Shown: in pieces, positions 3,380-54,827 of the stretch | How the letters are laid out: every line of letters begins with the position of its first letter | How positions within the stretch are numbered: the first letter of the stretch is position 1 | DNA from: a bacterium | GTDB taxonomy: Bacteria; J088; JAWLBW01 | Assembly: GCA_041690355.1 (NCBI GenBank) | Contig: JAWLHK010000001.1 | Location: 361,376-425,375 of the forward strand | Direction of reading: 5' to 3' | DNA length: 64,000 nt | Position numbers and translations under genes: made by a program | Notes under the pieces: generated by a model | What the model was told of the DNA's origin: nothing | The model's database searches: none | Seen by the model: only the letters and a program-made list of their open reading frames with translations

Positions 3380-5400
3380 AAATTCTTCTCGTCGACGACG
3401 ATCAGGCCTTCGTCGATCTCCTGCAGAAAACGCTGATCCACCACGGCCACACGGTAAGCGTCGCCTATCGTATCCGTGACGCGCGAACCCTTCTCGAGCG
3501 TGAGCGGCCGGATCTCGTCGTCGTCGACGGGCTGCTCCCCGACGGTAACGGAATGGCGTGGATCGAGGAGCGGCGGCAGGCCGGCGACACCTCGACCTTT
3601 CTCTTTCTCTCGGCGTTCTTCCGCGATCTGGCCAGCTTCCGCCGATTGACGCGCGACCTCTCGGTTCCGCTGATTCTGCACAAACCGATTTCACCGCTCG
3701 AGTTCATGCGGCAGGCGGCGCACTTTCTCGAGCCGACGGCTTCAGCCCCGGTTCCCCAGGCGCTGCCCGGCACGGCCCTCCTGCTGCCGCCGGCGGAATT
3801 CGACGATACCATCGATGATTTCGCCGCCGAGCTTGCGGGCCTGCGCGCCGAGTATCAGGCGAAGCTTGCCGTGCGGTTCGAAGACCTGGGGACGGCGCTT
3901 GCCGAGGCCGAACGCGACCCTGACCGGCACGAAACCGCCCTTCGCCTCGCCCACCGCCTGCACGGCACGGCCGGCTCGTACGGCTTTCACGAAGTGAGCG
4001 CCGCAGCGGGCACCATCGAAACCGCCCTGCGGGCGACCCCGCCCCGGTTCGCACAGGCGCGCGAGATGCTGCACCGCATGGTGCGACTGGGGGCGCTCAG
4101 CGATCCGCGGTCCGAGGCGGCCATGCCGGGCGCCTGGGTCGCCACCGTGCTCGTGATCGATTCCGATCCGGCCTTCCAGGTTGCCGTCCGCCATCTGGCC
4201 GACCGCGCCCTGGTACGCGTGTTCGGCGCCGCAGATGCCGCTGAGGCCCTCGCGCTGGTCTCCCGCAGCGAGTTCGACGGCATTCTGGTGAATCTGAGCG
4301 CCGCGCTGGAGAACGACGCCGCCCTTCTGGCCACGCTGCGCGGCCTCAAAGAGACGACCGGCGTGCCCATCGCCGTCCTGGCCGACGAAGCCGACGACGG
4401 CATCGAGAACCGCATTGCGGCGCAGCACGCGGGAGCCTCGCTCTTTCTCACGCGCCCGCTCGACTATCCCTCGTTCACGGACGGCGTGCGTTATCTCGCG
4501 GCCCTGCGGCATGCGGCTCGGGCCACCGTGCTGGCCGTCGACGACGACGCAGACTTTCTGCAGCTGCTCGAAAGTATGCTGCGCTCTGCCGGGTACCAGG
4601 CCGCGGTGTCAGCGGAACCGGAGTCGATACTCACGCTGCTAGCCGATCGGCAACCCGACGTCCTTCTGCTCGACGTCGACATGCCGACCATGTCGGGGTT
4701 CGACGTGTGCCGCATGCTGCGCACCCACTCGCGCTGGCGCGAGCTTCCCGTTCTCTTTCTGACCTCGCGCACCGATATGGAGTCGCGCATCGAAGCGTTT
4801 CGCGCGGGGGGCGACGACCTGCTCGTCAAGCCGATTGTGCGCGAGGAACTCGCCGCGCGCCTCGATCTGCGGCTCGAGCGCAATCGCCTGCTGCGTGAGA
4901 AGATGGAGCACGACGGCTTGACCGGCCTCCTGCTGCGCCCCCCATTTCTCACCGCGCTTGCCGCGCGCCTGCACGAGGCGGCGCGCAAGAACGCAAGCCT
5001 CGCGGTGGCCTTGCTCGACGTCGACCATTTCAAAACGGTCAATGATCGATACGGCCACGGGGTCGGCGACCGCGTCCTTGCGCGCCTCGGGGCGTCGATT
5101 GCCGGCCGGTTCCGCGCCGAGGATCTGCGCGCGCGCTGGGGCGGCGAGGAGATCGCGCTGGCTTTTCTCGAACAGTCGGCCGAGATGGCGCACGCGCTGC
5201 TCGAACGGCTGCTCGCCGAGTTTTCGCGTATCGAGTTCCACAGCGATGCGGGAGAATCCTTCCACGTCCAGTTCAGCGCCGGCGTGGCTGCGTTTCCCGC
5301 GGATGGCGACACGGTGGAACTGTTGCTGAAACGCGCCGACGATCGCCTGCTGGCCGCCAAGCGCGCGGGGCGCAACCGCATCAACTCGAGTGACGAGTGA
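3376..5400 (+). CDS. Multidomain response regulator / diguanylate cyclase: REC-HPt-(pseudo)REC-REC-GGDEF
   Basis: REC1 has DDD, VVVDGLLPD and LHKP. An HPt-like helix carries LAHRLHGTAGSYGF. REC2 has the phospho-acceptor replaced (ILVNL) and K replaced by R. REC3 is intact (DDD, LLLDVDMP, FLTSR, LVKP). A C-terminal GGDEF domain has the RWGGEEI active-site variant and an RAED (RxxD) I-site. Confidence 0.8.
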   Translation: MKILLVDDDQAFVDLLQKTLIHHGHTVSVAYRIRDARTLLERERPDLVVVDGLLPDGNGMAWIEERRQAGDTSTFLFLSAFFRDLASFRRLTRDLSVPLILHKPISPLEFMRQAAHFLEPTASAPVPQALPGTALLLPPAEFDDTIDDFAAELAGLRAEYQAKLAVRFEDLGTALAEAERDPDRHETALRLAHRLHGTAGSYGFHEVSAAAGTIETALRATPPRFAQAREMLHRMVRLGALSDPRSEAAMPGAWVATVLVIDSDPAFQVAVRHLADRALVRVFGAADAAEALALVSRSEFDGILVNLSAALENDAALLATLRGLKETTGVPIAVLADEADDGIENRIAAQHAGASLFLTRPLDYPSFTDGVRYLAALRHAARATVLAVDDDADFLQLLESMLRSAGYQAAVSAEPESILTLLADRQPDVLLLDVDMPTMSGFDVCRMLRTHSRWRELPVLFLTSRTDMESRIEAFRAGGDDLLVKPIVREELAARLDLRLERNRLLREKMEHDGLTGLLLRPPFLTALAARLHEAARKNASLAVALLDVDHFKTVNDRYGHGVGDRVLARLGASIAGRFRAEDLRARWGGEEIALAFLEQSAEMAHALLERLLAEFSRIEFHSDAGESFHVQFSAGVAAFPADGDTVELLLKRADDRLLAAKRAGRNRINSSDE

Positions 5401-5450
5401 CTTAGAGTTTTGAGTTCCGAGTTTTGAGTGACGAGTGACGAGTGACGATC
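5388..5450 (+). repeat. Heptanucleotide tandem array A: about 9 in-phase units of GAGTGAC / TTTGAGT type
   Basis: gagtgac gagtgac ttagagt tttgagt tccgagt tttgagt gacgagt gacgagt gacgatc. The first two units encode the last residues and the stop codon of the GGDEF gene. Confidence 0.8.
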
Positions 5451-5522
5451 TGTCCGGAAAGGACCTTGGTGCCAGTCTGGCGCTCAGTGCTTGGCGCTCG
5501 CTCCCCCTGCTCTTGCTTCTTA

Positions 5523-5550
5523 AGAATTAAGAATCAGGAATCAGGAATGC
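5523..5550 (+). repeat. Heptanucleotide tandem array B: 4 units of AAGAATC / AGGAATC type
   Basis: aagaatt aagaatc aggaatc aggaatg, 72 nt downstream of array A. Confidence 0.75.
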
Positions 5551-6540: not shown

Positions 6541-8207
6541 GCGCGACAACTTCGATTGTCCTCGATCCCCTGGGATTCGACCTTCCCCGCGATCACCGCC
6601 GGGCCATCCGGTGGACGGTCTATGTCGGCTATCTCGCCCTGACGGCCGGGATCTTCCACGGCCTGGCCCAATCGCTCTCCTACGCGAAGATCGACATCCT
6701 CGAGTACTTCCCCTTTCTGCGCAGCTACTACCAGGGGCTGACCGCGCATGGCGTGGCCAACGCGCTGATCTTCACGTTCTCGTTCAGCAACGCCTTTCTG
6801 CCCCTGATGACCGCGCGCGCCCTGAGCGCGAAGTTGAGCGGGTTTCTGCTCTGGCTCTCGCTCGATCTGCTCATCGCGGGGAACATTCTCGTCATCTATG
6901 CCGTGACGACGAACCAGGCCAGCGTTCTCTACACGTCCTATGCGCCTCTCCAGGCCCACTGGACGTACTATATCGGACTGGTCCTTGTGGTCGTCTCGAC
7001 CTGGGTGGCGCTGGTGAACATGCTCGGCGTCTACCGGCGATACCGCAAGGCTCATCCGGACGCGCGCGTTCCGCTGCTCGCGCACATCGCGGTCATCAGC
7101 TACGTCATGTGGTTTCTGGCCTCGCTGCCGATCGCAACCAGTTTCCTCGCGTTTCTCACCCCTTGGACAGTGGGGTTGACCGAGAAGACCGATCCGCTCT
7201 TCATCCGCACACTGTTCTGGTTCACGGGGCACGCCATCGTCTATGCATGGCTGCTTCCGGGCTACGTTTCCTGGTACGCCACTGTGCCGCGCCTGGCAGG
7301 GGGGAAAATCATCAGTGACCCGCTGACGCGCTTCGTGTTCATCCTCTTTCTGCTCTACTCGATTCCGACTGGATTCCACCACCAGTACACCGACCCCGGA
7401 ATCAGCACGACGATGAAGGGGATCCACGCCGTGCTGACCTTCATCGTCTTTTTTCCAAGTCTGGCAACGGCGTTCACGATGATGGCGGCCCTCGAGATGG
7501 GCGGCCGTCGCCACGGCGGCACCGGCCTGTTCGGGTGGATCCGCAAGATCCCGTGGGGCGACCCATCACTTGCGGCACAGGTTCTGGCCATGATCACGTT
7601 CGTGTTCGGCGGCATCACGGGCCTGATCAACGCAAGCTTCACCATGAATCAGGTCATCCACAACACGACCTGGGTCCCCGGGCACTTCCACATGACCGTC
7701 GGGAGCGCGGTCGCCCTGACCCTGATGGGTGTCGCCTATTGGATGATCCCGTATCTGACGGGACGCGCGCTCTTCAGCCGCACCATGGGGCTGGCTTCTT
7801 CATGGATTTATACGATCGGGGTGCTCATCTTCGCGCGTGGCATGATCTCGGCGGGGCTCGCGGGCATGCCGCGGCGGACCTTCATCGCCCAGGCGACGTA
7901 CTACCGGGAAGGCTGGGAGCTTTCAGGGGCGATTACGGCCGTCGGCGGAACGCTCATGTTCATCGGCATCGCCCTGTTCTTCATCGACATGCTGCTGACC
8001 ACCGTGGCGGGAAAGAAAGGGGCCGGCCCACGCGACATCCCGCTTTCGTCGACACTGTTCGCTCCGGCGCGCCACGGATGGGAACGGCACCTCGACCGAC
8101 TTGGCTGGTGGGTCGTGGCGGCCATCGCGCTGATTCTGATCGCCTACGGGCCGTTCTTTCTGACCTACGCGCCGCGCTTCGTTTCGCCAGGCTTTCAGAT
8201 CTGGTAG
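6537..8207 (+). CDS. cbaA: Cytochrome c oxidase subunit I, B-family (ba3-type heme-copper oxidase)
   Basis: Polytopic protein of 556 aa. GHFHMTVGS and other conserved His-containing helices of heme-copper oxidase subunit I. Overlaps the subunit II stop (ATGA). Confidence 0.85.
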   Translation: MSATTSIVLDPLGFDLPRDHRRAIRWTVYVGYLALTAGIFHGLAQSLSYAKIDILEYFPFLRSYYQGLTAHGVANALIFTFSFSNAFLPLMTARALSAKLSGFLLWLSLDLLIAGNILVIYAVTTNQASVLYTSYAPLQAHWTYYIGLVLVVVSTWVALVNMLGVYRRYRKAHPDARVPLLAHIAVISYVMWFLASLPIATSFLAFLTPWTVGLTEKTDPLFIRTLFWFTGHAIVYAWLLPGYVSWYATVPRLAGGKIISDPLTRFVFILFLLYSIPTGFHHQYTDPGISTTMKGIHAVLTFIVFFPSLATAFTMMAALEMGGRRHGGTGLFGWIRKIPWGDPSLAAQVLAMITFVFGGITGLINASFTMNQVIHNTTWVPGHFHMTVGSAVALTLMGVAYWMIPYLTGRALFSRTMGLASSWIYTIGVLIFARGMISAGLAGMPRRTFIAQATYYREGWELSGAITAVGGTLMFIGIALFFIDMLLTTVAGKKGAGPRDIPLSSTLFAPARHGWERHLDRLGWWVVAAIALILIAYGPFFLTYAPRFVSPGFQIW

Positions 8208-8243: not shown

Positions 8244-9392
8244 TCAGGGAAGAAGTGCCGCCAGCAGCCGCACGACGTTACCGCCCATGATTTTGCGAAC
8301 GTCGTCTTCGGTGAATCCCTCAGCAAGCAGTGCGTCGGTCAACATGGCGAAGTTGGCGGCATCGAACGGCGTGCTGACCATGCCGTCGAAATCGGATCCG
8401 AGCGCCACGTGGTCGACCCCCACGACGTCAACGGTGTGGCGCATGGCGCGCACGACCGCGGCAACGTCTTCTCCGCAGGTGGCGAGCTTGAAGAACGCAA
8501 TGCCGATGACGCCCCCGTTACGCGCGATGGCGCGCAGCTGATCGTCCGACAGATTGCGGTTGTTCTCGCAGGTCCCCTTGACGCCCGTGTGCGAGATGAA
8601 AATCGGGCGCCGGGTAAGCCGGAGCACTTCGTCGAGGACCGGGGCCGAGGCGTGGGCGAGATCGATGATCATCTTCTTCTCGTCCATCCGCTTCACCCAG
8701 GCACGGCCGAGCGGCGTCAGACCACCCTTCTTCTTGCCGTGAGCCGAGCCGCCGATATCGTTGTCGAAGAAGTGCGTGGGGGCGACCATGCGCACGCCGG
8801 CGTCATAGAAGACGTCGAGGTTACTCAGGTTCCCCTCGAGCGCATGCGCCCCCTCGATGCCGAGAAAGCCGGCGATCAGGTCCGGCTCCGCCTTGCGGCG
8901 ATCGAGAAAGGCAGCCAGATCGGCCCGGGTCCGGATGATCACGAACTTTCCGTCCGAAGCGTCTGCGGCAGCCTGCAGCTTGCCCGCCTGATAGAGCGTG
9001 CGGCTCACGAGCGACGACCAGGTCGGCGTGGGCCATCCCTGCGCCATGGCAAGGACGCTGATCAGGTCTCCCTGATCGCCCGTGCTGTCAATGTTGATGT
9101 CGGCCGGCACCTTGCTGACGATCGTGAAGGCCTGGAGGGCATGATTGCCCGCCCGCATGCGCGCCAGGTCGACATGGCCGGCGTCGTTCGGTCCCTCGAT
9201 GGGCCGGTTCCACAACAGCGAGTCGGCGTGCAGGTCGGCGGTGAGGAGCTCACGATGCAGTGCGGCGGCGCGTTCGCTCACGGTTGCCGGCTCCTGGGTC
9301 ACGGCGTTGAACGACCGATCGACACGAGAGGCGGCGAAGCATCCCCCGAGCAGCAGGAGGGCAGCGGGCAGGAGCAAGGAGCGCGGGCGCAT
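8244..9392 (-). CDS. Membrane dipeptidase (peptidase family M19), secreted or lipoprotein
   Basis: DLHADSL and HVALGSDFDG motifs of renal-dipeptidase-family enzymes. Start set at the internal ATG that begins the signal peptide MRPRSLLLPAALLLLGGC. Confidence 0.8.
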   Translation of the reverse strand: MRPRSLLLPAALLLLGGCFAASRVDRSFNAVTQEPATVSERAAALHRELLTADLHADSLLWNRPIEGPNDAGHVDLARMRAGNHALQAFTIVSKVPADINIDSTGDQGDLISVLAMAQGWPTPTWSSLVSRTLYQAGKLQAAADASDGKFVIIRTRADLAAFLDRRKAEPDLIAGFLGIEGAHALEGNLSNLDVFYDAGVRMVAPTHFFDNDIGGSAHGKKKGGLTPLGRAWVKRMDEKKMIIDLAHASAPVLDEVLRLTRRPIFISHTGVKGTCENNRNLSDDQLRAIARNGGVIGIAFFKLATCGEDVAAVVRAMRHTVDVVGVDHVALGSDFDGMVSTPFDAANFAMLTDALLAEGFTEDDVRKIMGGNVVRLLAALLP

Positions 9393-9558
9393 GGGCGGTT
9401 CTCCGGTCAGCGAGTGGAAAAGGACCAGTATACTGTCTCGGCCAGTATACTGTCTCGGAACGCCCGATGGCCAATGAGCCAATTCCAAACGCAAGCCGCA
9501 GAACTCTGAATCCTGACACCCGCCGCTTGGACCCGAAGCCCGCAGACCCGATATCCTG

Positions 9559-11196
9559 TTGGGCATGAAGTCGTTTTCGATTGCCCTGTCGCTGGTTCTT
9601 CTTTTACTCGGGCCCGCCCAGGCGGATCGTCTCTACGTCGGACCTGTCTTTCAGACGGGCAACGCGGCGCAGCCGATTGCCCGGGCCGTGCGCGTCGACG
9701 ACAAGGGGCGCATCGTGTCCGTCCATGAAGAAGTTCCCCCTGCGGCCGGGGCCGAAGTCGTTCGCCTTCCGGGCGCCAGCGCGCTTCCCGGTCTGCACGA
9801 CGCCCACCTGCATCTCGAGGGGCTCGGCATGAAGCTGACGGCCCTCGATCTCACCGGCGTGCGGTCACGGGCCGAGCTGCGGACGCGGGCCGAGGCCTGG
9901 GTGCGTGCCCATCCGGAGAGCACCGTCTACCGCGGCTTCGGCTGGGACCAGAATCTGTTTCCGGACCAGGCCTTCCCCACCTTCGCAGACGTCAACGGAA
10001 TCACCGACCGCCCGCTGTTTCTGATTCGCACCGACGGGCACGCCGCCGTGCTCAACGAGAGCGCGTTCGCACTGACGGACATTCCGCTGCGGGAAACCGG
10101 CGGCGACCCGGCCGGCGTCGGACGCGATCCGGAGGGGAATGCCACCGGACTGTTGCTCGACGAGGCGTTCATCCGCGCGGAATCGCGCATGCCCCAGCCG
10201 ACACTCGAGGAACGCAAGGAGATGATCCGGGCCGCCCTAGCCGCCGCGGCCGACGCCGGACTCACGGCGCTGCACGAGATGGCCATGTTCGGCCCGGCCA
10301 TGGATGCACTGCTGGCGCTGCAGGCAGAAGAGGGACCGCTTCCCGTGCGCGTCTACGTCTACATGGCGGGAACGCATCTGCCGTGGCTCTTCGGCGATTT
10401 CTTCGCGCACCCCTTCGGCGACGCCCGGCGCGGCCGGGTCGAGATCATGGGGATCAAGCTCATGATCGACGGGGCCATGGGGAGCCGGGGCGCGATGCTC
10501 TACGAACCCTATGCCGACGACCCCGGCAACAGCGGGCATCCTGCGTTTTCGCTGACGCTCCAGCGCTGGATCTACACCTTTGCACGCAAGGTCGGCTGGC
10601 AGGTGGCCGTGCACGCCATCGGCGACAAGGCCAACCACGAGGCCATCCGCTGGATTGAGGGGGACGCTGCTGCCAACCCCTACCCCACCCGGATTGAACA
10701 CGCCCAGTTCCTGGCCGCCGAAGACTTCGCGCGGCTCGCCGGAACCGGGGCTGTCGTGTCGATGCAGCCGGTTCACGTCGCCGACGATCTCGGCTGGGCG
10801 GGTGCACGCCTGGGGCCCGAACGCGCGGCCAGGGCCTATGCCTGGCGCAGCCACGCCGCCGCCGGCGCCCTGCTGGCGTGCGGCAGCGATGCCCCGGTCT
10901 CCGACATCCGCCCGACGCTCGGATTTCACACCGCGCTCACCCGTCAGACACCGGAGGGAACGCCCCCGGGCGGCTGGTATGCGGAACAACGGCTGACCTG
11001 GCCAGAAGTCCTGCGCTGCTACACACAGGGAGCTGCCGCGGCGGTGCGGCGCGACGGGGAGCTCGGTTCCCTCGTCCCCGGAAAGCTCTTCGACGTGACG
11101 CTCTTCGACCGCGACTGCCGCGATGACGCTTCCTGCTGGCTCGCCGCGCGTCCCTTGGGCACGGTGCTCGAAGGCGAATTGCGCCTGCCGCGGTGA
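9559..11196 (+). CDS. Secreted metal-dependent amidohydrolase (Amidohydro_3 / YtcJ-like)
   Basis: Signal peptide. LPGLHDAHLHLEGLG metal-binding motif. C-terminal GSDAPV motif. Confidence 0.75.
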   Translation: MGMKSFSIALSLVLLLLGPAQADRLYVGPVFQTGNAAQPIARAVRVDDKGRIVSVHEEVPPAAGAEVVRLPGASALPGLHDAHLHLEGLGMKLTALDLTGVRSRAELRTRAEAWVRAHPESTVYRGFGWDQNLFPDQAFPTFADVNGITDRPLFLIRTDGHAAVLNESAFALTDIPLRETGGDPAGVGRDPEGNATGLLLDEAFIRAESRMPQPTLEERKEMIRAALAAAADAGLTALHEMAMFGPAMDALLALQAEEGPLPVRVYVYMAGTHLPWLFGDFFAHPFGDARRGRVEIMGIKLMIDGAMGSRGAMLYEPYADDPGNSGHPAFSLTLQRWIYTFARKVGWQVAVHAIGDKANHEAIRWIEGDAAANPYPTRIEHAQFLAAEDFARLAGTGAVVSMQPVHVADDLGWAGARLGPERAARAYAWRSHAAAGALLACGSDAPVSDIRPTLGFHTALTRQTPEGTPPGGWYAEQRLTWPEVLRCYTQGAAAAVRRDGELGSLVPGKLFDVTLFDRDCRDDASCWLAARPLGTVLEGELRLPR

Positions 11197-11508: not shown

Positions 11509-11557
11509 GCAGAAGCGCCAAGCACCAAGCGCCGAGCGTCAAGCAAGCAAGGACAAG
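11509..11557. repeat. Heptanucleotide tandem array: about 7 units of NNCAAGC type
   Basis: cagaagc gccaagc accaagc gccgagc gtcaagc aagcaag gacaagc. Confidence 0.6.
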
Positions 11558-11574
11558 CGCCCTGTGTTCTTTCC

Positions 11575-11609
11575 GGTCAATCGTCAATCGTAAATTGTAA
11601 GTCGTCAAT
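11575..11609. repeat. Heptanucleotide tandem array: 5 units of GTCAATC type
   Basis: gtcaatc gtcaatc gtaaatt gtaagtc gtcaatc, 17 nt after the previous array. Confidence 0.65.
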
Positions 11610-11691
11610 CGATCGGAATTCCCTTGCCGCTTTCCAAAGGGGTGCGGTAGATTGGCAGTTTACGCCCCGCTATCCCCATGGAGGTTCTGCG

Positions 11692-17577: not shown

Positions 17578-17596
17578 GGCGACGCCGTTCCCGTTT

Positions 17597-17624
17597 CAGG
17601 AATCAAGAATCTGGAATCAGGAAT
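17597..17624 (+). repeat. Heptanucleotide tandem array B copy: 4 units of CAGGAAT type
   Basis: caggaat caagaat ctggaat caggaat, 20 nt after the thioesterase stop, followed by the hairpin at 17633-17652. Confidence 0.7.
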
Positions 17625-17632
17625 GCAACCTT

Positions 17633-17652
17633 CCTGACGCGCCAGCGTCAGG
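17633..17652. terminator. Perfect hairpin between convergent genes (thioesterase / yebC-like), candidate bidirectional terminator
   Basis: CCTGACGC-GCCA-GCGTCAGG, overlapping the yebC-like stop codon. Confidence 0.5.
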
Positions 17653-18385
17653 TAAGGTTGTGAAAGACTTTCTGGACGTCGTCGTCCTGCTCGAGGCGGT
17701 CGACCAGCTTGAGCACTTCCTGCGCGGCTTCGTCCGAGAGCTCCACCGGCGTCGTCGGTATCCACTCTACTTCGGCGCTGACGGGCGTGATCCCCCGATC
17801 TTCGAGGGCCTTCTGCAGTGTGCCGAAATCGGCGAAGGCGCAGCGGATCACCAGGATGTCCTTGCCGTCATCGGTCGTGCTCTCGCCCATCTCTTCGAGC
17901 CCGTGGTCGATCAGCTCGAGCTCGAGCTCGTCCTGGTCGACTCCCTTGGGGTCGATCTTGAAGACCCCCATCTTCTTGAACTGGAACGCCACGCTCCCCG
18001 ACGTTCCCAGATTCCCGTGGCCGCGGTCGAAATGCGAGCGCATGTTCGCCACGGTGCGCGTCGGATTGTCGGTCGCGGTCTCGACCAGGATGGCGACGCC
18101 GTGAGGGCCATAGCCCTCGTACAGAATCTCGCTGTAGTCTTCCTTGTCCTTGCCCATCGCCCGCTTGATCGCGCCTTCAACCCTGTCCTTGGGCATGTTG
18201 ACGCTCTTGGCGTTCTGCAGGCAGCGGCGCAAGGCCGGGTTCGAGGCCGGATCGGGGCCGCCCGCCTTGACGGCGATGACGATCTCCTTGCCGATGCGCG
18301 TGAACTGCTTGGACATCTTGTCCCAGCGGGCGAACATCGTATGCTTGCGCGTCTCAAATATGCGTCCCATAAAAGCCTCTGACAC
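17648..18385 (-). CDS. YebC/PmpR-family transcriptional regulatory protein
   Basis: About 245 aa. N-terminal basic helix ([20 protein letters not shown]) and three-domain YebC-like composition. An alternative start 15 nt downstream. Confidence 0.7.
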
Positions 18386-25326: not shown

Positions 25327-25506
25327 ATGGCAGTGGAATACAAGGTCGCCGAAACGAGCGACGTCAGCGACAGCGGCCTCGAAAAGATTCTCAACCAGCT
25401 GACGGCGCAGGGCTGGGCCCTCGAAGGGATTCATTTCGCCATGCGCGACAACAGCCGCCGCCCGGCCATGGCCTTCGTCATCTTCTCGCGCGAGCGCGCG
25501 GATTGA
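25327..25506 (+). CDS. DUF4177-like small protein (59 aa)
   Basis: Not in the ORF track (<60 aa). MAVEYKVAE ... QGWALEGIHFA pattern typical of DUF4177. The stop codon is the first unit of a heptamer array. Confidence 0.45.
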   Translation: MAVEYKVAETSDVSDSGLEKILNQLTAQGWALEGIHFAMRDNSRRPAMAFVIFSRERAD

Positions 25507-25551
25507 TTCCTGATTCCGATTCCTGATTCCTGATTCCTGATTCTTGAGAGA
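25504..25551 (-). repeat. Heptanucleotide tandem array B copy (reverse orientation): about 7 units of TGATTCC
   Basis: tgattcc tgattcc gattcc tgattcc tgattcc tgattcc tgattct. Starts at the stop codon of the DUF4177-like gene. Read on the minus strand it is (GGAATCA)n. Confidence 0.8.
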
Positions 25552-25575
25552 CAAGGACTTGGACTGCCCGGGGTC

Positions 25576-25617
25576 CGTCACTCGTCACTCGCAACTCGCA
25601 ACTCGTAACTCGCCACT
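25576..25617 (-). repeat. Heptanucleotide tandem array A copy (reverse orientation): 6 units of GTCACTC / GCAACTC
   Basis: gtcactc gtcactc gcaactc gcaactc gtaactc gccactc. Abuts the stop codon of the minus-strand CTP_transf_1-family gene. Confidence 0.8.
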
Positions 25618-25621
25618 CCCC

Positions 25622-26599
25622 CTACAGCAGCAGCGCCCCCACGGCGGCGCAGACGAGTGGAATCGAGAGGTTATCGTCGACGCGGCTGCTGAGCAGTTCG
25701 GTCACGGCCCCCGCCGCGGCAATCCCGGCCGCAATGCCGAGCCCCGCCGCCACACCCAGAGCGGGCTGCGTCAGCAGCAGGAGGGCGCCGACCGAGATCA
25801 GGCCCGTGAAAAAGAAACCGAGCGTGCCCGCCCAGCTCTTGTCGCGGAAGAGTTTGCGCCGGCCCCAGCGCTTGCCGACAAGGGAGGCGATCGGGTCGCT
25901 GAAGCCGAGCACGAGCACGGCCGCCTCGACGGCGACCTTGGGAAAGAACCAGGTAATGATGATGAGCGCCAGCAGATAGAGCGTGGCCGAGTTGGTGCGG
26001 TAGCGCTCTGAAGGGCGGGATATCGAGCCGAAGACCTTGTCGACCAGAAAATCGTTCCAGCGGGTCGAGAAACGCCGCGTCACCTCGAGTACGAAGAAAA
26101 CCGAGAAGATCGTGCCCAGCACCATCAGCGCGCTCTCGCGAGTCAGCACGAAGTGATAGAGCGTGAAGGCAATCACGCCGTTGGACATGTGGAAAAGGTT
26201 CCGCACGTAGTTCGTCGGCTTGAGCTGACGGGAGAGCCCCAGGGCCGCGGCGCGTTCGGCATGGCGCTTCTTGAGCTCAAGCAGCAGCTCTTCGTAGCTC
26301 CGCGCCAGACGCTCCTTGCGTTCCTTCAACGCCTGCACGTTGGGCGATTCGGCGAGCGTGTCGCTGTAGGCGCGCATGCGATCGGCGAGCTCCCGCAGTT
26401 TCTCCAGGCTCGACGCGGGTCCCGCGCCGGCCGTAAAAGCGGCTATCCGGCCGGCCAGGTCATCGCCGACCGCGCGCACGCGTTCACTCCACCGGCGGTC
26501 GGCGGTGCGGGGCTGCTGGATTCCGTCGATGTACTCCCTGACCTGATCGATCAGGGCTTCGATGGCTTCGAATTCGTGGGCGTTCGACGAGGCCGTCAT
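25622..26599 (-). CDS. CTP_transf_1-family membrane protein (CdsA / dolichol-kinase-like) with an N-terminal soluble domain
   Basis: C-terminal GKRWGRRKLFRDKSWAGTLGFFFTGL motif. Start at an ATG preceded by GGGAGAA; the longer G/P/R-rich N-terminal extension was rejected. Confidence 0.6.
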   Translation of the reverse strand: MTASSNAHEFEAIEALIDQVREYIDGIQQPRTADRRWSERVRAVGDDLAGRIAAFTAGAGPASSLEKLRELADRMRAYSDTLAESPNVQALKERKERLARSYEELLLELKKRHAERAAALGLSRQLKPTNYVRNLFHMSNGVIAFTLYHFVLTRESALMVLGTIFSVFFVLEVTRRFSTRWNDFLVDKVFGSISRPSERYRTNSATLYLLALIIITWFFPKVAVEAAVLVLGFSDPIASLVGKRWGRRKLFRDKSWAGTLGFFFTGLISVGALLLLTQPALGVAAGLGIAAGIAAAGAVTELLSSRVDDNLSIPLVCAAVGALLL

Positions 26600-37190: not shown

Positions 37191-37354
37191 CCGTGGCGCC
37201 CAGCCCCGCACCGGTTCCCTAACCGATTTTTCGTCCAGACGTAACCCCTCGGACGGCGCCGGCGCCGCAGCGCCTCGGATTACCGTCGGCATGGAGTACG
37301 CTCGTATCGAGGAGCGGATCCATGCGCACTTTTCCGCTCCCGGAAAGGTGTACC

Positions 37355-38041
37355 ATGCGACTTCTGCTTCTGGCCCTGCTTCTCTTCTCGGCATCTGCCT
37401 GCGGTGACGACGACTCACCGGGCCAACCCACCGAAGAAACCCGGGTTCCCCCTCCCGACGATACCGACGATACCGACGATGACGATCGGGACGACGACGG
37501 AGACGACACGAATGGTGACCGTGACGACGATGACCGGGACGACGACTCTGACGACGGCAGAACATCGGGGTGCGACGTCGAAAACCGTACCATCGACGAC
37601 AACGTTTTCCTGGGCGGCGAGCAGGACTGCACCTATCGTAACGTGCGCATCACCGGAAATCTCCGGATTGACGACGGCGCCGGGTTCACGGGAACGAACC
37701 TCCGGCTCGACGGGAACCTCGAGGCCGAAGACTTCGGCGAGCTCACGCTGTCCGAATCGCTGATTCGAGGAAACGTCGAGGCCGAGCGCGGAGGAAGCGT
37801 CTCGATACTCGACTCGGAGATCGACGGAAACGTGCACCTGGAGTCGAACCGGGGGGCGATTGCCATCCTGCGCAACCGGATTGACGGCAATGTCGAGCTC
37901 GAAGACAACACGGGAGGCCCGTTCGAGATTTCCGAGAACCTGATCCGGGGAAACGTGGAATGCGAGCGCAACGACCCGGCCCCGTTCGGGAGCGGAAACC
38001 AGGTCGACGGTAATCTCGAGGATCAGTGCGCCGGCCTCTAG
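37355..38041 (+). CDS. Acidic lipoprotein with about 20-aa GN(V/L)E repeats (beta-helix-like)
   Basis: Lipobox LLFSASAC. Asp-rich linker (DDTDDTDDDDRDDDGDD...). At least 8 repeats of the form IxGNVExE. Confidence 0.5.
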   Translation: MRLLLLALLLFSASACGDDDSPGQPTEETRVPPPDDTDDTDDDDRDDDGDDTNGDRDDDDRDDDSDDGRTSGCDVENRTIDDNVFLGGEQDCTYRNVRITGNLRIDDGAGFTGTNLRLDGNLEAEDFGELTLSESLIRGNVEAERGGSVSILDSEIDGNVHLESNRGAIAILRNRIDGNVELEDNTGGPFEISENLIRGNVECERNDPAPFGSGNQVDGNLEDQCAGL

Positions 38042-49974: not shown

Positions 49975-50096
49975 GCCGCGCCGCTTCGGACAGCCGCCTC
50001 TCCCCTTACCCGTAAAAAAAGAAAGACCCGCGTTGCCGCGGGTCTTCGTGTAATCTGTCGGGCCGATTACCGTCTACCGGTAACCGCGTGGCGCAA

Positions 50097-54688: not shown

Positions 54689-54695
54689 GGGATAC

Positions 54696-54730
54696 GAGTG
54701 ACGAGTTACGAGTGACGAGTGACAAGTGGC
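54696..54730 (+). repeat. Heptanucleotide tandem array A copy: 5 units of CGAGTGA type
   Basis: cgagtga cgagtta cgagtga cgagtga caagtgg, starting 8 nt after the acylase stop codon. Confidence 0.7.
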
Positions 54731-54827
54731 CAATCTCCGGGCCGGTCGGTGCCTGGGGCCTTTGCGGAATGCGATGATTCGGAACAGACCGCATGTTCAG
54801 GGCGGAATTCTCAAGTAGAATGGTGTT

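Follow-up and report, generated by a model that had tools for sequence, protein, structure and literature searches.

Modular heptanucleotide arrays in a convergent intergenic gap of a GC-rich uncultured bacterium

Two convergent genes near 25.5 kb of the window (the whole 64-kb stretch of DNA that we analysed) are separated by arrays of two different 7-nt units, and we read this locus as a set of modular heptanucleotide simple-sequence arrays, of a kind already known to be widespread, in preference to one discrete element. The arrays belong with the heptanucleotide long simple-sequence repeats (SSRs) described in the literature, and add a clear-cut instance in an uncultured lineage of high GC content. 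We consider it probable, though well short of certain, that they were generated by slippage and are tolerated past gene 3' ends, with no function specific to the locus.

Heptamer arrays in the 25.5-kb gap and across the window

Direct reading and TRF both recover the arrays at 25.5 kb, and TRF assigns them a period of 7, with 6.4 copies in the first array and 4.6 in the second. Read on the minus strand, the locus is (GAGTNNN)6, a spacer and (GGAATCA)6; we refer to these unit families as A and B, respectively (Table 1). On the plus strand, the B array reads TGATTCC, TGATTCC, GATTCC, TGATTCC, TGATTCC and TGATTCT, and the A array consists of GTCACTC twice, GCAACTC twice, GTAACTC and GCCACTC. The initial annotation had thus described the sequence accurately but for small corrections: the TGATTCC array is present with about six units rather than seven, and the spacer is 26-32 nt long, depending on whether TGAGAG is included, rather than 24 nt. 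Its six GTCACTC-like units are all there, as is the start of the B array at the TGA of the plus-strand DUF4177-like gene, whose stop codon supplies the first three bases of the first TGATTCC unit. At the other end, the A array begins 3 nt past the TAG stop of the minus-strand ORF that ends at 25622, so that the dolichol-kinase-like gene is the gene directly upstream of it. With a stop codon inside the first unit on one side and an ORF end 3 nt away on the other, the 115-bp convergent gap is filled, as had also been annotated.

Table 1. Repeat arrays and adjoining features, in window coordinates
Feature	Position	Strand	Description
Array, family A (GAGTNNN)	5388-5448	+	GAGTGAC/GAGTTTT/GAGTTCC; 3-nt phase shift
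Units of family C (GGCGCTT) in 5.4-kb spacer	5479-5499	+	GGCGCTC AGTGCTT GGCGCTC; match the 11.5-kb array
Array, family B (GGAATCA)	5520-5548	+	TTAAGAA x2, then GAATCAG x2.6; about 70 nt upstream of next plus-strand gene
Array, family C (GGCGCTT)	11513-11560	-	AAGCGCC on plus, GGCGCTT on minus; divergent intergenic region
Array, family D (GATTGAC)	11576-11611	-	GTCAATC on plus, GATTGAC on minus; unit differs from GAGTGAC by one base
Array, family B, alone	17596-17624	+	GAATCAA, GAATCTG, GAATCAG; convergent gap, 20 nt past thioesterase gene stop
Near-perfect strong hairpin	17626-17660		15-bp stem CAACCTTCCTGACGC gcca GCGTCAGGTAAGGTTG; adjoins the 17.6-kb B array
DUF4177-like gene	25327-25506	+	59 aa; weak, full-length DUF4177 match; stop codon in first repeat unit
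Array, family B	25504-25544	-	About 6 units, GGAATCA on minus = TGATTCC on plus; one unit one base short
Spacer between B and A arrays	25545-25576		Weak 5-bp hairpin (GGACT...GGTCC) only
Array, family A	25577-25618	-	6 GAGTNNN units; NNN = GGC, TAC, TGC, TGC, GAC, GAC
Dolichol-kinase/CTP-transferase-like membrane protein gene	25622-26599	-	325 aa from internal ATG; ORF reaches 26905
Array, family A, alone	54691-54730	+	GAGTGAC, GAGTTAC, GAGTGAC x2, AAGTGGC; begins 7 nt past TGA stop

These arrays are not isolated. In a sliding self-match scan of the window, period 7 was the sole enriched tandem period, with 8 arrays as compared to 0-1 for each other period between 4 and 12. Five consecutive GAGTNNN units were matched 4 times and four consecutive GAATNNN units 3 times, where shuffles led us to expect 0.00 in either case; the repeats thus exceed chance. 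The 8 arrays belong to four unit families at five loci, all of them between ORFs, whether these are co-directional, convergent or divergent, and their GC content is 33-53%, as compared to 65.7% for the window. Units combine a constant 4-nt core with a variable 3-nt part, and within the arrays identical variants follow one another in runs; there is also one deletion of 1 nt and one phase shift of 3 nt. A further period-7 match, at 9359-9386, is weak and lies within a signal-peptide coding region, and was rejected as an array.

The arrays lie very close to the genes before them. At four of the five loci the array starts 0-20 nt from a stop codon, as compared to a published mean of 28 nt to the upstream ORF for the repeats of Xanthomonas, and the A array at 5.4 kb reaches into a response-regulator/GGDEF gene, covering its TGA stop and the 4 codons before it. 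Reading the units themselves shows that GAGTGAC and TGATTCC both contain TGA and that all three frames are closed within 21 nt; arrays therefore begin at stop codons, and an adjoining gene necessarily terminates within the first units or where they start. In the 5.4-kb gene the GGDEF domain is complete, ending 6 residues ahead of the stop, and the DUF4177 match of the 59-aa protein, although its 19.9 bits fall under the cut-off of 25, spans profile positions 2-64 of 65. Thus, the arrays abut protein domains without truncating them. For annotation, stop codons within heptamer arrays may be evolutionarily recent.

Three other repeated sequences in the window deserve mention. A GGAATGC motif ends the B arrays at 5.4 kb (5524-5550) and 17.6 kb (17600-17627), and occurs again at 54765-54772, some 35 nt past the A array that stands alone at 54.7 kb; the GGAAT and GATTC fragments there could be the remains of a B array. 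At 9425-9458 a 17-bp sequence is directly repeated without mismatch (two copies of CCAGTATACTGTCTCGG, with the palindrome CAGTATACTG within each copy); it lies between two divergent genes, one on the minus strand with its start near 9393 and one on the plus strand near 9559, and looks like an operator. Tandem repeats of 9, 12 and 15 nt at 37455-37545, within the plus-strand gene at 37322-38041, code for a low-complexity linker rich in aspartate (DDTDDTDDDDRDDDGDD) in a putative lipoprotein; these are coding and unrelated to the heptamers.

A probable slippage origin and the published heptanucleotide repeats

According to the accounts of Mrázek (2007) given in PMC4679880 and PMC4692102, heptanucleotides are the most abundant class of long SSRs in most prokaryotic genomes, and their excess has been put down, as a proposal, to slippage linked to how much DNA the polymerase holds. 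On these accounts, the arrays described here share with that class the 7-nt tandems, the period excess, the non-coding position, the sporadic phylogenetic distribution and the proposed slippage origin, and there is no essential difference beyond their occurrence in an uncultured GC-rich bacterium. Like long SSRs and the short tandemly repeated repetitive (STRR) sequences, they have at least about four head-to-tail copies and an excess of period 7, and form families dispersed in non-coding DNA.

We infer that slipped-strand replication of 7-nt units would start and lengthen such arrays, and that renewed amplification of variant units would yield sub-blocks and adjacent arrays. Such arrays would persist only in unconstrained DNA, chiefly just past gene 3' ends, and their spread would continue up to a conserved coding sequence. 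Any effect that they have would then be incidental, arising from the presence of AT-richer, unstructured DNA between convergent genes.

To extend the analysis beyond the window, we scanned metagenomes with five consecutive GAGTNNN units, which returned at least 120 contigs with a GC content of 33-72%. In 656 kb of contigs among the matches listed, there were 313 arrays with a period of 7, as compared to 6-44 for each other period. A second array lay within 150 nt of 39 of the 124 seeded arrays (~31%) among the matches listed, and the neighbours of seeded arrays in the same set comprised 17 inverted arrays, 18 with a different unit and 7 with the same unit. Adjacent units in this wider set, among the matches listed, resembled each other far more closely than permuted units did (z = -20.9), which is what local duplication would produce. 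In the window alone the similarity is not significant (P=0.19), the window being too small for this test.

Closely similar repeats have been published for Xanthomonas, in which Rehm et al. (2015, PMC4692102) described ~185 (GGGANTN)n arrays per genome, 89-93% of them intergenic, at a mean distance of 28 nt from the upstream ORF but 160 nt from the downstream ORF. Those arrays often come in convergent pairs and vary between species, no function was found for them, and they show no preferred orientation with respect to genes (30-35% in each direction; PMC4692102). The B unit, in the register AGGAATC, is one base from Xanthomonas GGGAATC. Like the Xanthomonas repeats and the GGGGA(C/T)T repeats of Nostoc, the arrays in the window are intergenic, vary around a conserved core and lie close to the 3' end of the ORF before them; in both cases two arrays are often close by, and position and sequence, which turn over between relatives there, may do so here too. 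They differ in that the two arrays here have different heptamers on one strand, instead of being inverted copies. They differ also from the GGGANTN units, which have a G3 tract and G-quadruplex potential in arrays of at least 4 units: GGAATCA and GAGTNNN have at most two consecutive G, and so have no G-quadruplex potential, which argues against G-quadruplex formation as a general rationale for such arrays.

Two further groups of intergenic heptamers resemble the arrays described here in part. In Geobacter metallireducens, class 3 sites consist of five tandem MTYCTGA units paired on opposite strands, and were proposed to be sites for a global regulator or for IHF/HU (Aklujkar et al. 2009, PMC2700814). 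The B unit on its other strand, TTCCTGA, matches MTYCTGA at 6 of 7 positions, and both sets are arrays of about five units in intergenic DNA, but at our locus the B array is paired with another heptamer on its own strand. Marine Beggiatoaceae have abundant intergenic TAACTGA direct repeats (MacGregor 2015, PMC4679880). These are likewise heptamer direct repeats with TGA in the unit; unlike the arrays in the window, they form a single family of 2-6 copies located just upstream of start codons.

The STRR sequences of cyanobacteria, said to have been described by Mazel and colleagues in 1990, reportedly comprise several tandem heptanucleotide families dispersed in intergenic DNA. The window resembles them in carrying several heptanucleotide families in the intergenic DNA of one genome, with no assigned function. 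It differs in unit sequence and in phylum, and STRRs are often stem-loops whereas the 25.5-kb locus is not. REP units are palindromic, ~35 nt long and mobilised by RAYT transposases. REP/BIME and REPIN sequences share with the window arrays the character of short dispersed repeats in 3' intergenic regions; the units described here are instead 7-nt direct tandems that lack palindromy and fold into no stem-loop.

Position and sequence could be followed, to a limited extent, in relatives of the neighbouring genes. The carboxyltransferase near the locus is 85% identical to that of a Sandaracinus MAG and 70-76% identical to those of other Myxococcota, a weak pointer, from one protein, to Myxococcota as the probable source. 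None of the 80 loci fetched with the carboxyltransferase carried homologues of the DUF4177, dolichol-kinase-like or glycosyltransferase genes. Those 80 loci contained few heptamer arrays, mostly in Geobacteraceae, where the units were TCAGAAT and TCAGGAG, plus GTGAGGC paired with its complement. We also examined five distinct homologues of the dolichol-kinase-like protein (55-70% amino acid identity), in contigs where the gene neighbours differ and synteny is not kept. Period-7 arrays were absent from three of the five homologue loci and lay elsewhere than in the 3' flank at one; the fifth, in contig L082, has 3'-flank arrays of an unrelated unit. Directly after the homologue stop in L082 there are TCGGACG-like units, a hairpin and a second array, unlike the units of the window. 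This metagenome contig (70% GC, with a 65%-identical homologue) has arrays at 6591-6750, 8573-8600 and 11628-11672, with TCGGACG, CCGCCGA-like and GGTTGTC units in three intergenic gaps.

Possible roles in protein binding and at transcript ends

We considered whether the arrays might instead have a function. Each family has a constant 4-nt core at a strict 7-nt spacing, which would suit a multimeric platform on which a putative sequence-specific protein binds DNA or RNA, each 7-nt unit taking up one protomer, in the manner of the heptad operators of omega repressor (pSM19035) or of the global-regulator or IHF/HU sites proposed for Geobacter. In a variant of this idea, CsrA, S1 or Csp would bind GGA-containing RNA repeats, and GGAATCA does offer a GGA every 7 nt. 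Similar proposals have been made for Geobacter MTYCTGA (PMC2700814) and for Beggiatoaceae TAACTGA (PMC4679880), and near-identical units occur in distant phyla: AGGAATC here, GGGAATC in Xanthomonas, and TCAGGAG and TCAGAAT in Geobacter. We nevertheless regard a binding platform as rather unlikely. With at least four families in 64 kb, and dozens across metagenomes, many binding proteins would be needed; moreover, the unit sequence is not conserved at the five homologues of the flanking gene examined, the genes beside the arrays are unrelated to one another, and the published heptamer-binding proposals remain proposals.

A second possible function concerns the ends of transcripts. The A and B arrays are not complementary, and a hairpin between them was rejected: the predicted fold of the minus-strand RNA at 25.5 kb is no better than those of shuffled sequences (z +0.76), and that of the plus-strand RNA is worse than 200 of 200 shuffles (z +2.33). 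There was no match to Rfam at the gathering threshold in the whole window, and no site resembling an intrinsic terminator (a GC-rich hairpin followed by a T run) within 25507-25621, where the best local hairpin reaches only -16 to -19 kcal/mol. Three other convergent gaps, at 17.6 kb, 50.0 kb and 11.2 kb, contain strong hairpins (z ~-3.5). Since the 25.5-kb gap is without a hairpin terminator while these three gaps have one, the arrays at 25.5 kb may be doing something there. Their plus-strand RNA is C-rich and unstructured, with a GC skew of -0.54 in the A part and -0.21 for the element as a whole.

Judging from sequence composition, C-rich, G-poor RNA of this kind could load Rho, and the locus could then act as a strand-specific transcription stop or antisense insulator, ending the DUF4177 transcript before it enters the dolichol-kinase-like gene in antisense. 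The lack of structure, the skew and the lack of an intrinsic-terminator-like site in a gap whose three counterparts have hairpins all fit such a role, which we still consider unlikely. It would work in one direction only, as the minus-strand RNA is G-rich, and the sense strand is the G-rich strand at 5.4 kb and 54.7 kb. Furthermore, any non-palindromic tandem repeat is unstructured by construction, and the lack of orientation preference of the Xanthomonas arrays (PMC4692102) points the same way. A broader version would make heptad arrays functional 3'-end modules, whose unstructured and strand-asymmetric RNA or DNA would recruit a factor that multimerises, Rho or a heptad-reading protein, and so terminate or insulate transcription between tightly packed convergent genes that lack hairpins, with the GAGT-then-GAAT order as a conserved polarity. 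We think this decidedly improbable; if true, the excess of heptanucleotides in bacteria, for long without explanation, would have a function. The real interest of the locus is limited to this one point, a convergent gene pair with no other visible terminator.

The strong hairpins elsewhere in the window have features of their own. The one at 17.6 kb sits between convergent thioesterase and YebC-like genes, overlaps the YebC stop and has no T run; its arms carry the B unit in either orientation, as TTCCTGA and as TCAGGTA, and the hairpin probably acts as a bidirectional terminator. The GC-rich hairpin AAGACCCGCG ttgc CGCGGGTCTT in the convergent gap at ~49990-50030 (z ~-3.4, minus strand) looks like a typical bidirectional terminator, unlike the array-filled gap at 25.5 kb.

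Relationship between the A and B arrays

The initial annotation regarded the 25.5-kb locus as an inverted copy of a single A/B element also found at 5.4 kb, and proposed an alignment of the two as a check. An alignment of all five loci placed only the repeats in register, and revealed no boundaries, flanks, terminal inverted repeats or target-site duplications in common. The A-B spacers are 26-32 nt long at 25.5 kb and ~70 nt long at 5.4 kb, and their similarity is no better than that of shuffled sequences (p=0.7). In shuffle tests of all spacers, the sole significant match was the third heptamer family, GGCGCTY, present at 5.4 kb and 11.5 kb. Array combinations differ by locus (A+C+B, A+B, D+C, A, B); with A alone at 54.7 kb, B alone at 17.6 kb and unrelated spacers, the five loci represent modular combinations of arrays. 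The discrete A/B element, and with it the "inverted copy", was therefore rejected, since the loci share nothing but repeats and the third heptamer family.

The gene-relative order and strand are indeed the same at 5.4 kb, where GAGTNNN units (5388-5448) precede GAATNNN units (5520-5548), as originally noted. However, such agreement at two loci has a chance probability of ~1/4, and neighbouring arrays with different units follow no strand rule across the 120 metagenome contigs listed; the shared polarity thus does not carry the argument for function or directional insertion that had been built on it. Across the window and the fetched sequences, a GAGT array followed downstream by a GAAT array on the same strand occurs in four cases (two in the window, and one each in contigs L124 and L197), and there is one further, mixed case of GAGT and GAAT in L031. 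This recurrence hints at a non-random arrangement. GAGT and GAAT are one transition apart, and hence the order fits budding from mutated units of an older array. Among 38 pairs of neighbouring arrays with different units in the metagenome contigs listed, there was no concordance of strand skew. Under slippage, the A-then-B order at the two window loci would reflect related units budding adjacently on one strand, and not a conserved composite.

The same observations bear on the idea of a MITE-like non-autonomous mobile element, made up of an A array, spacer and B array and inserted directionally downstream of genes. Such an element would account for the common order and strand at the two window loci and for the same-strand GAGT-then-GAAT arrays in the two metagenome contigs, but its spacers are unrelated and of unequal length, it has none of the terminal features or common boundaries of an insertion, A and B arrays each occur alone, a third family lies inside the 5.4-kb spacer, and no GAGT/GAAT composite was found in viral contigs. 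Directional insertion is largely refuted on these grounds, and we regard a mobile element as very improbable; in annotation, heptamer arrays should be labelled neither mobile elements nor RNAs. Least credible of all is a phase-variation (contingency) locus, in which repeat number would switch expression of a neighbouring gene as heptanucleotide repeats control the HMW adhesins of Haemophilus influenzae in the accounts of PMC8262952 and PMC12721329, given that the arrays are imperfect, lie 3' of both genes and outside any promoter or ORF, and adjoin housekeeping-type genes, and that Rehm et al. held phase variation to be unlikely for the same class (PMC4692102).

The density that neighbouring arrays can reach is seen in contig L124, where at least 6 different heptamer arrays, with units that include GAAGTAA, GATTCGT, CATTTGC and CTACTCC, lie end to end at 2026-2411 and 2687-2974; these clusters are an extreme case of arrays budding side by side.
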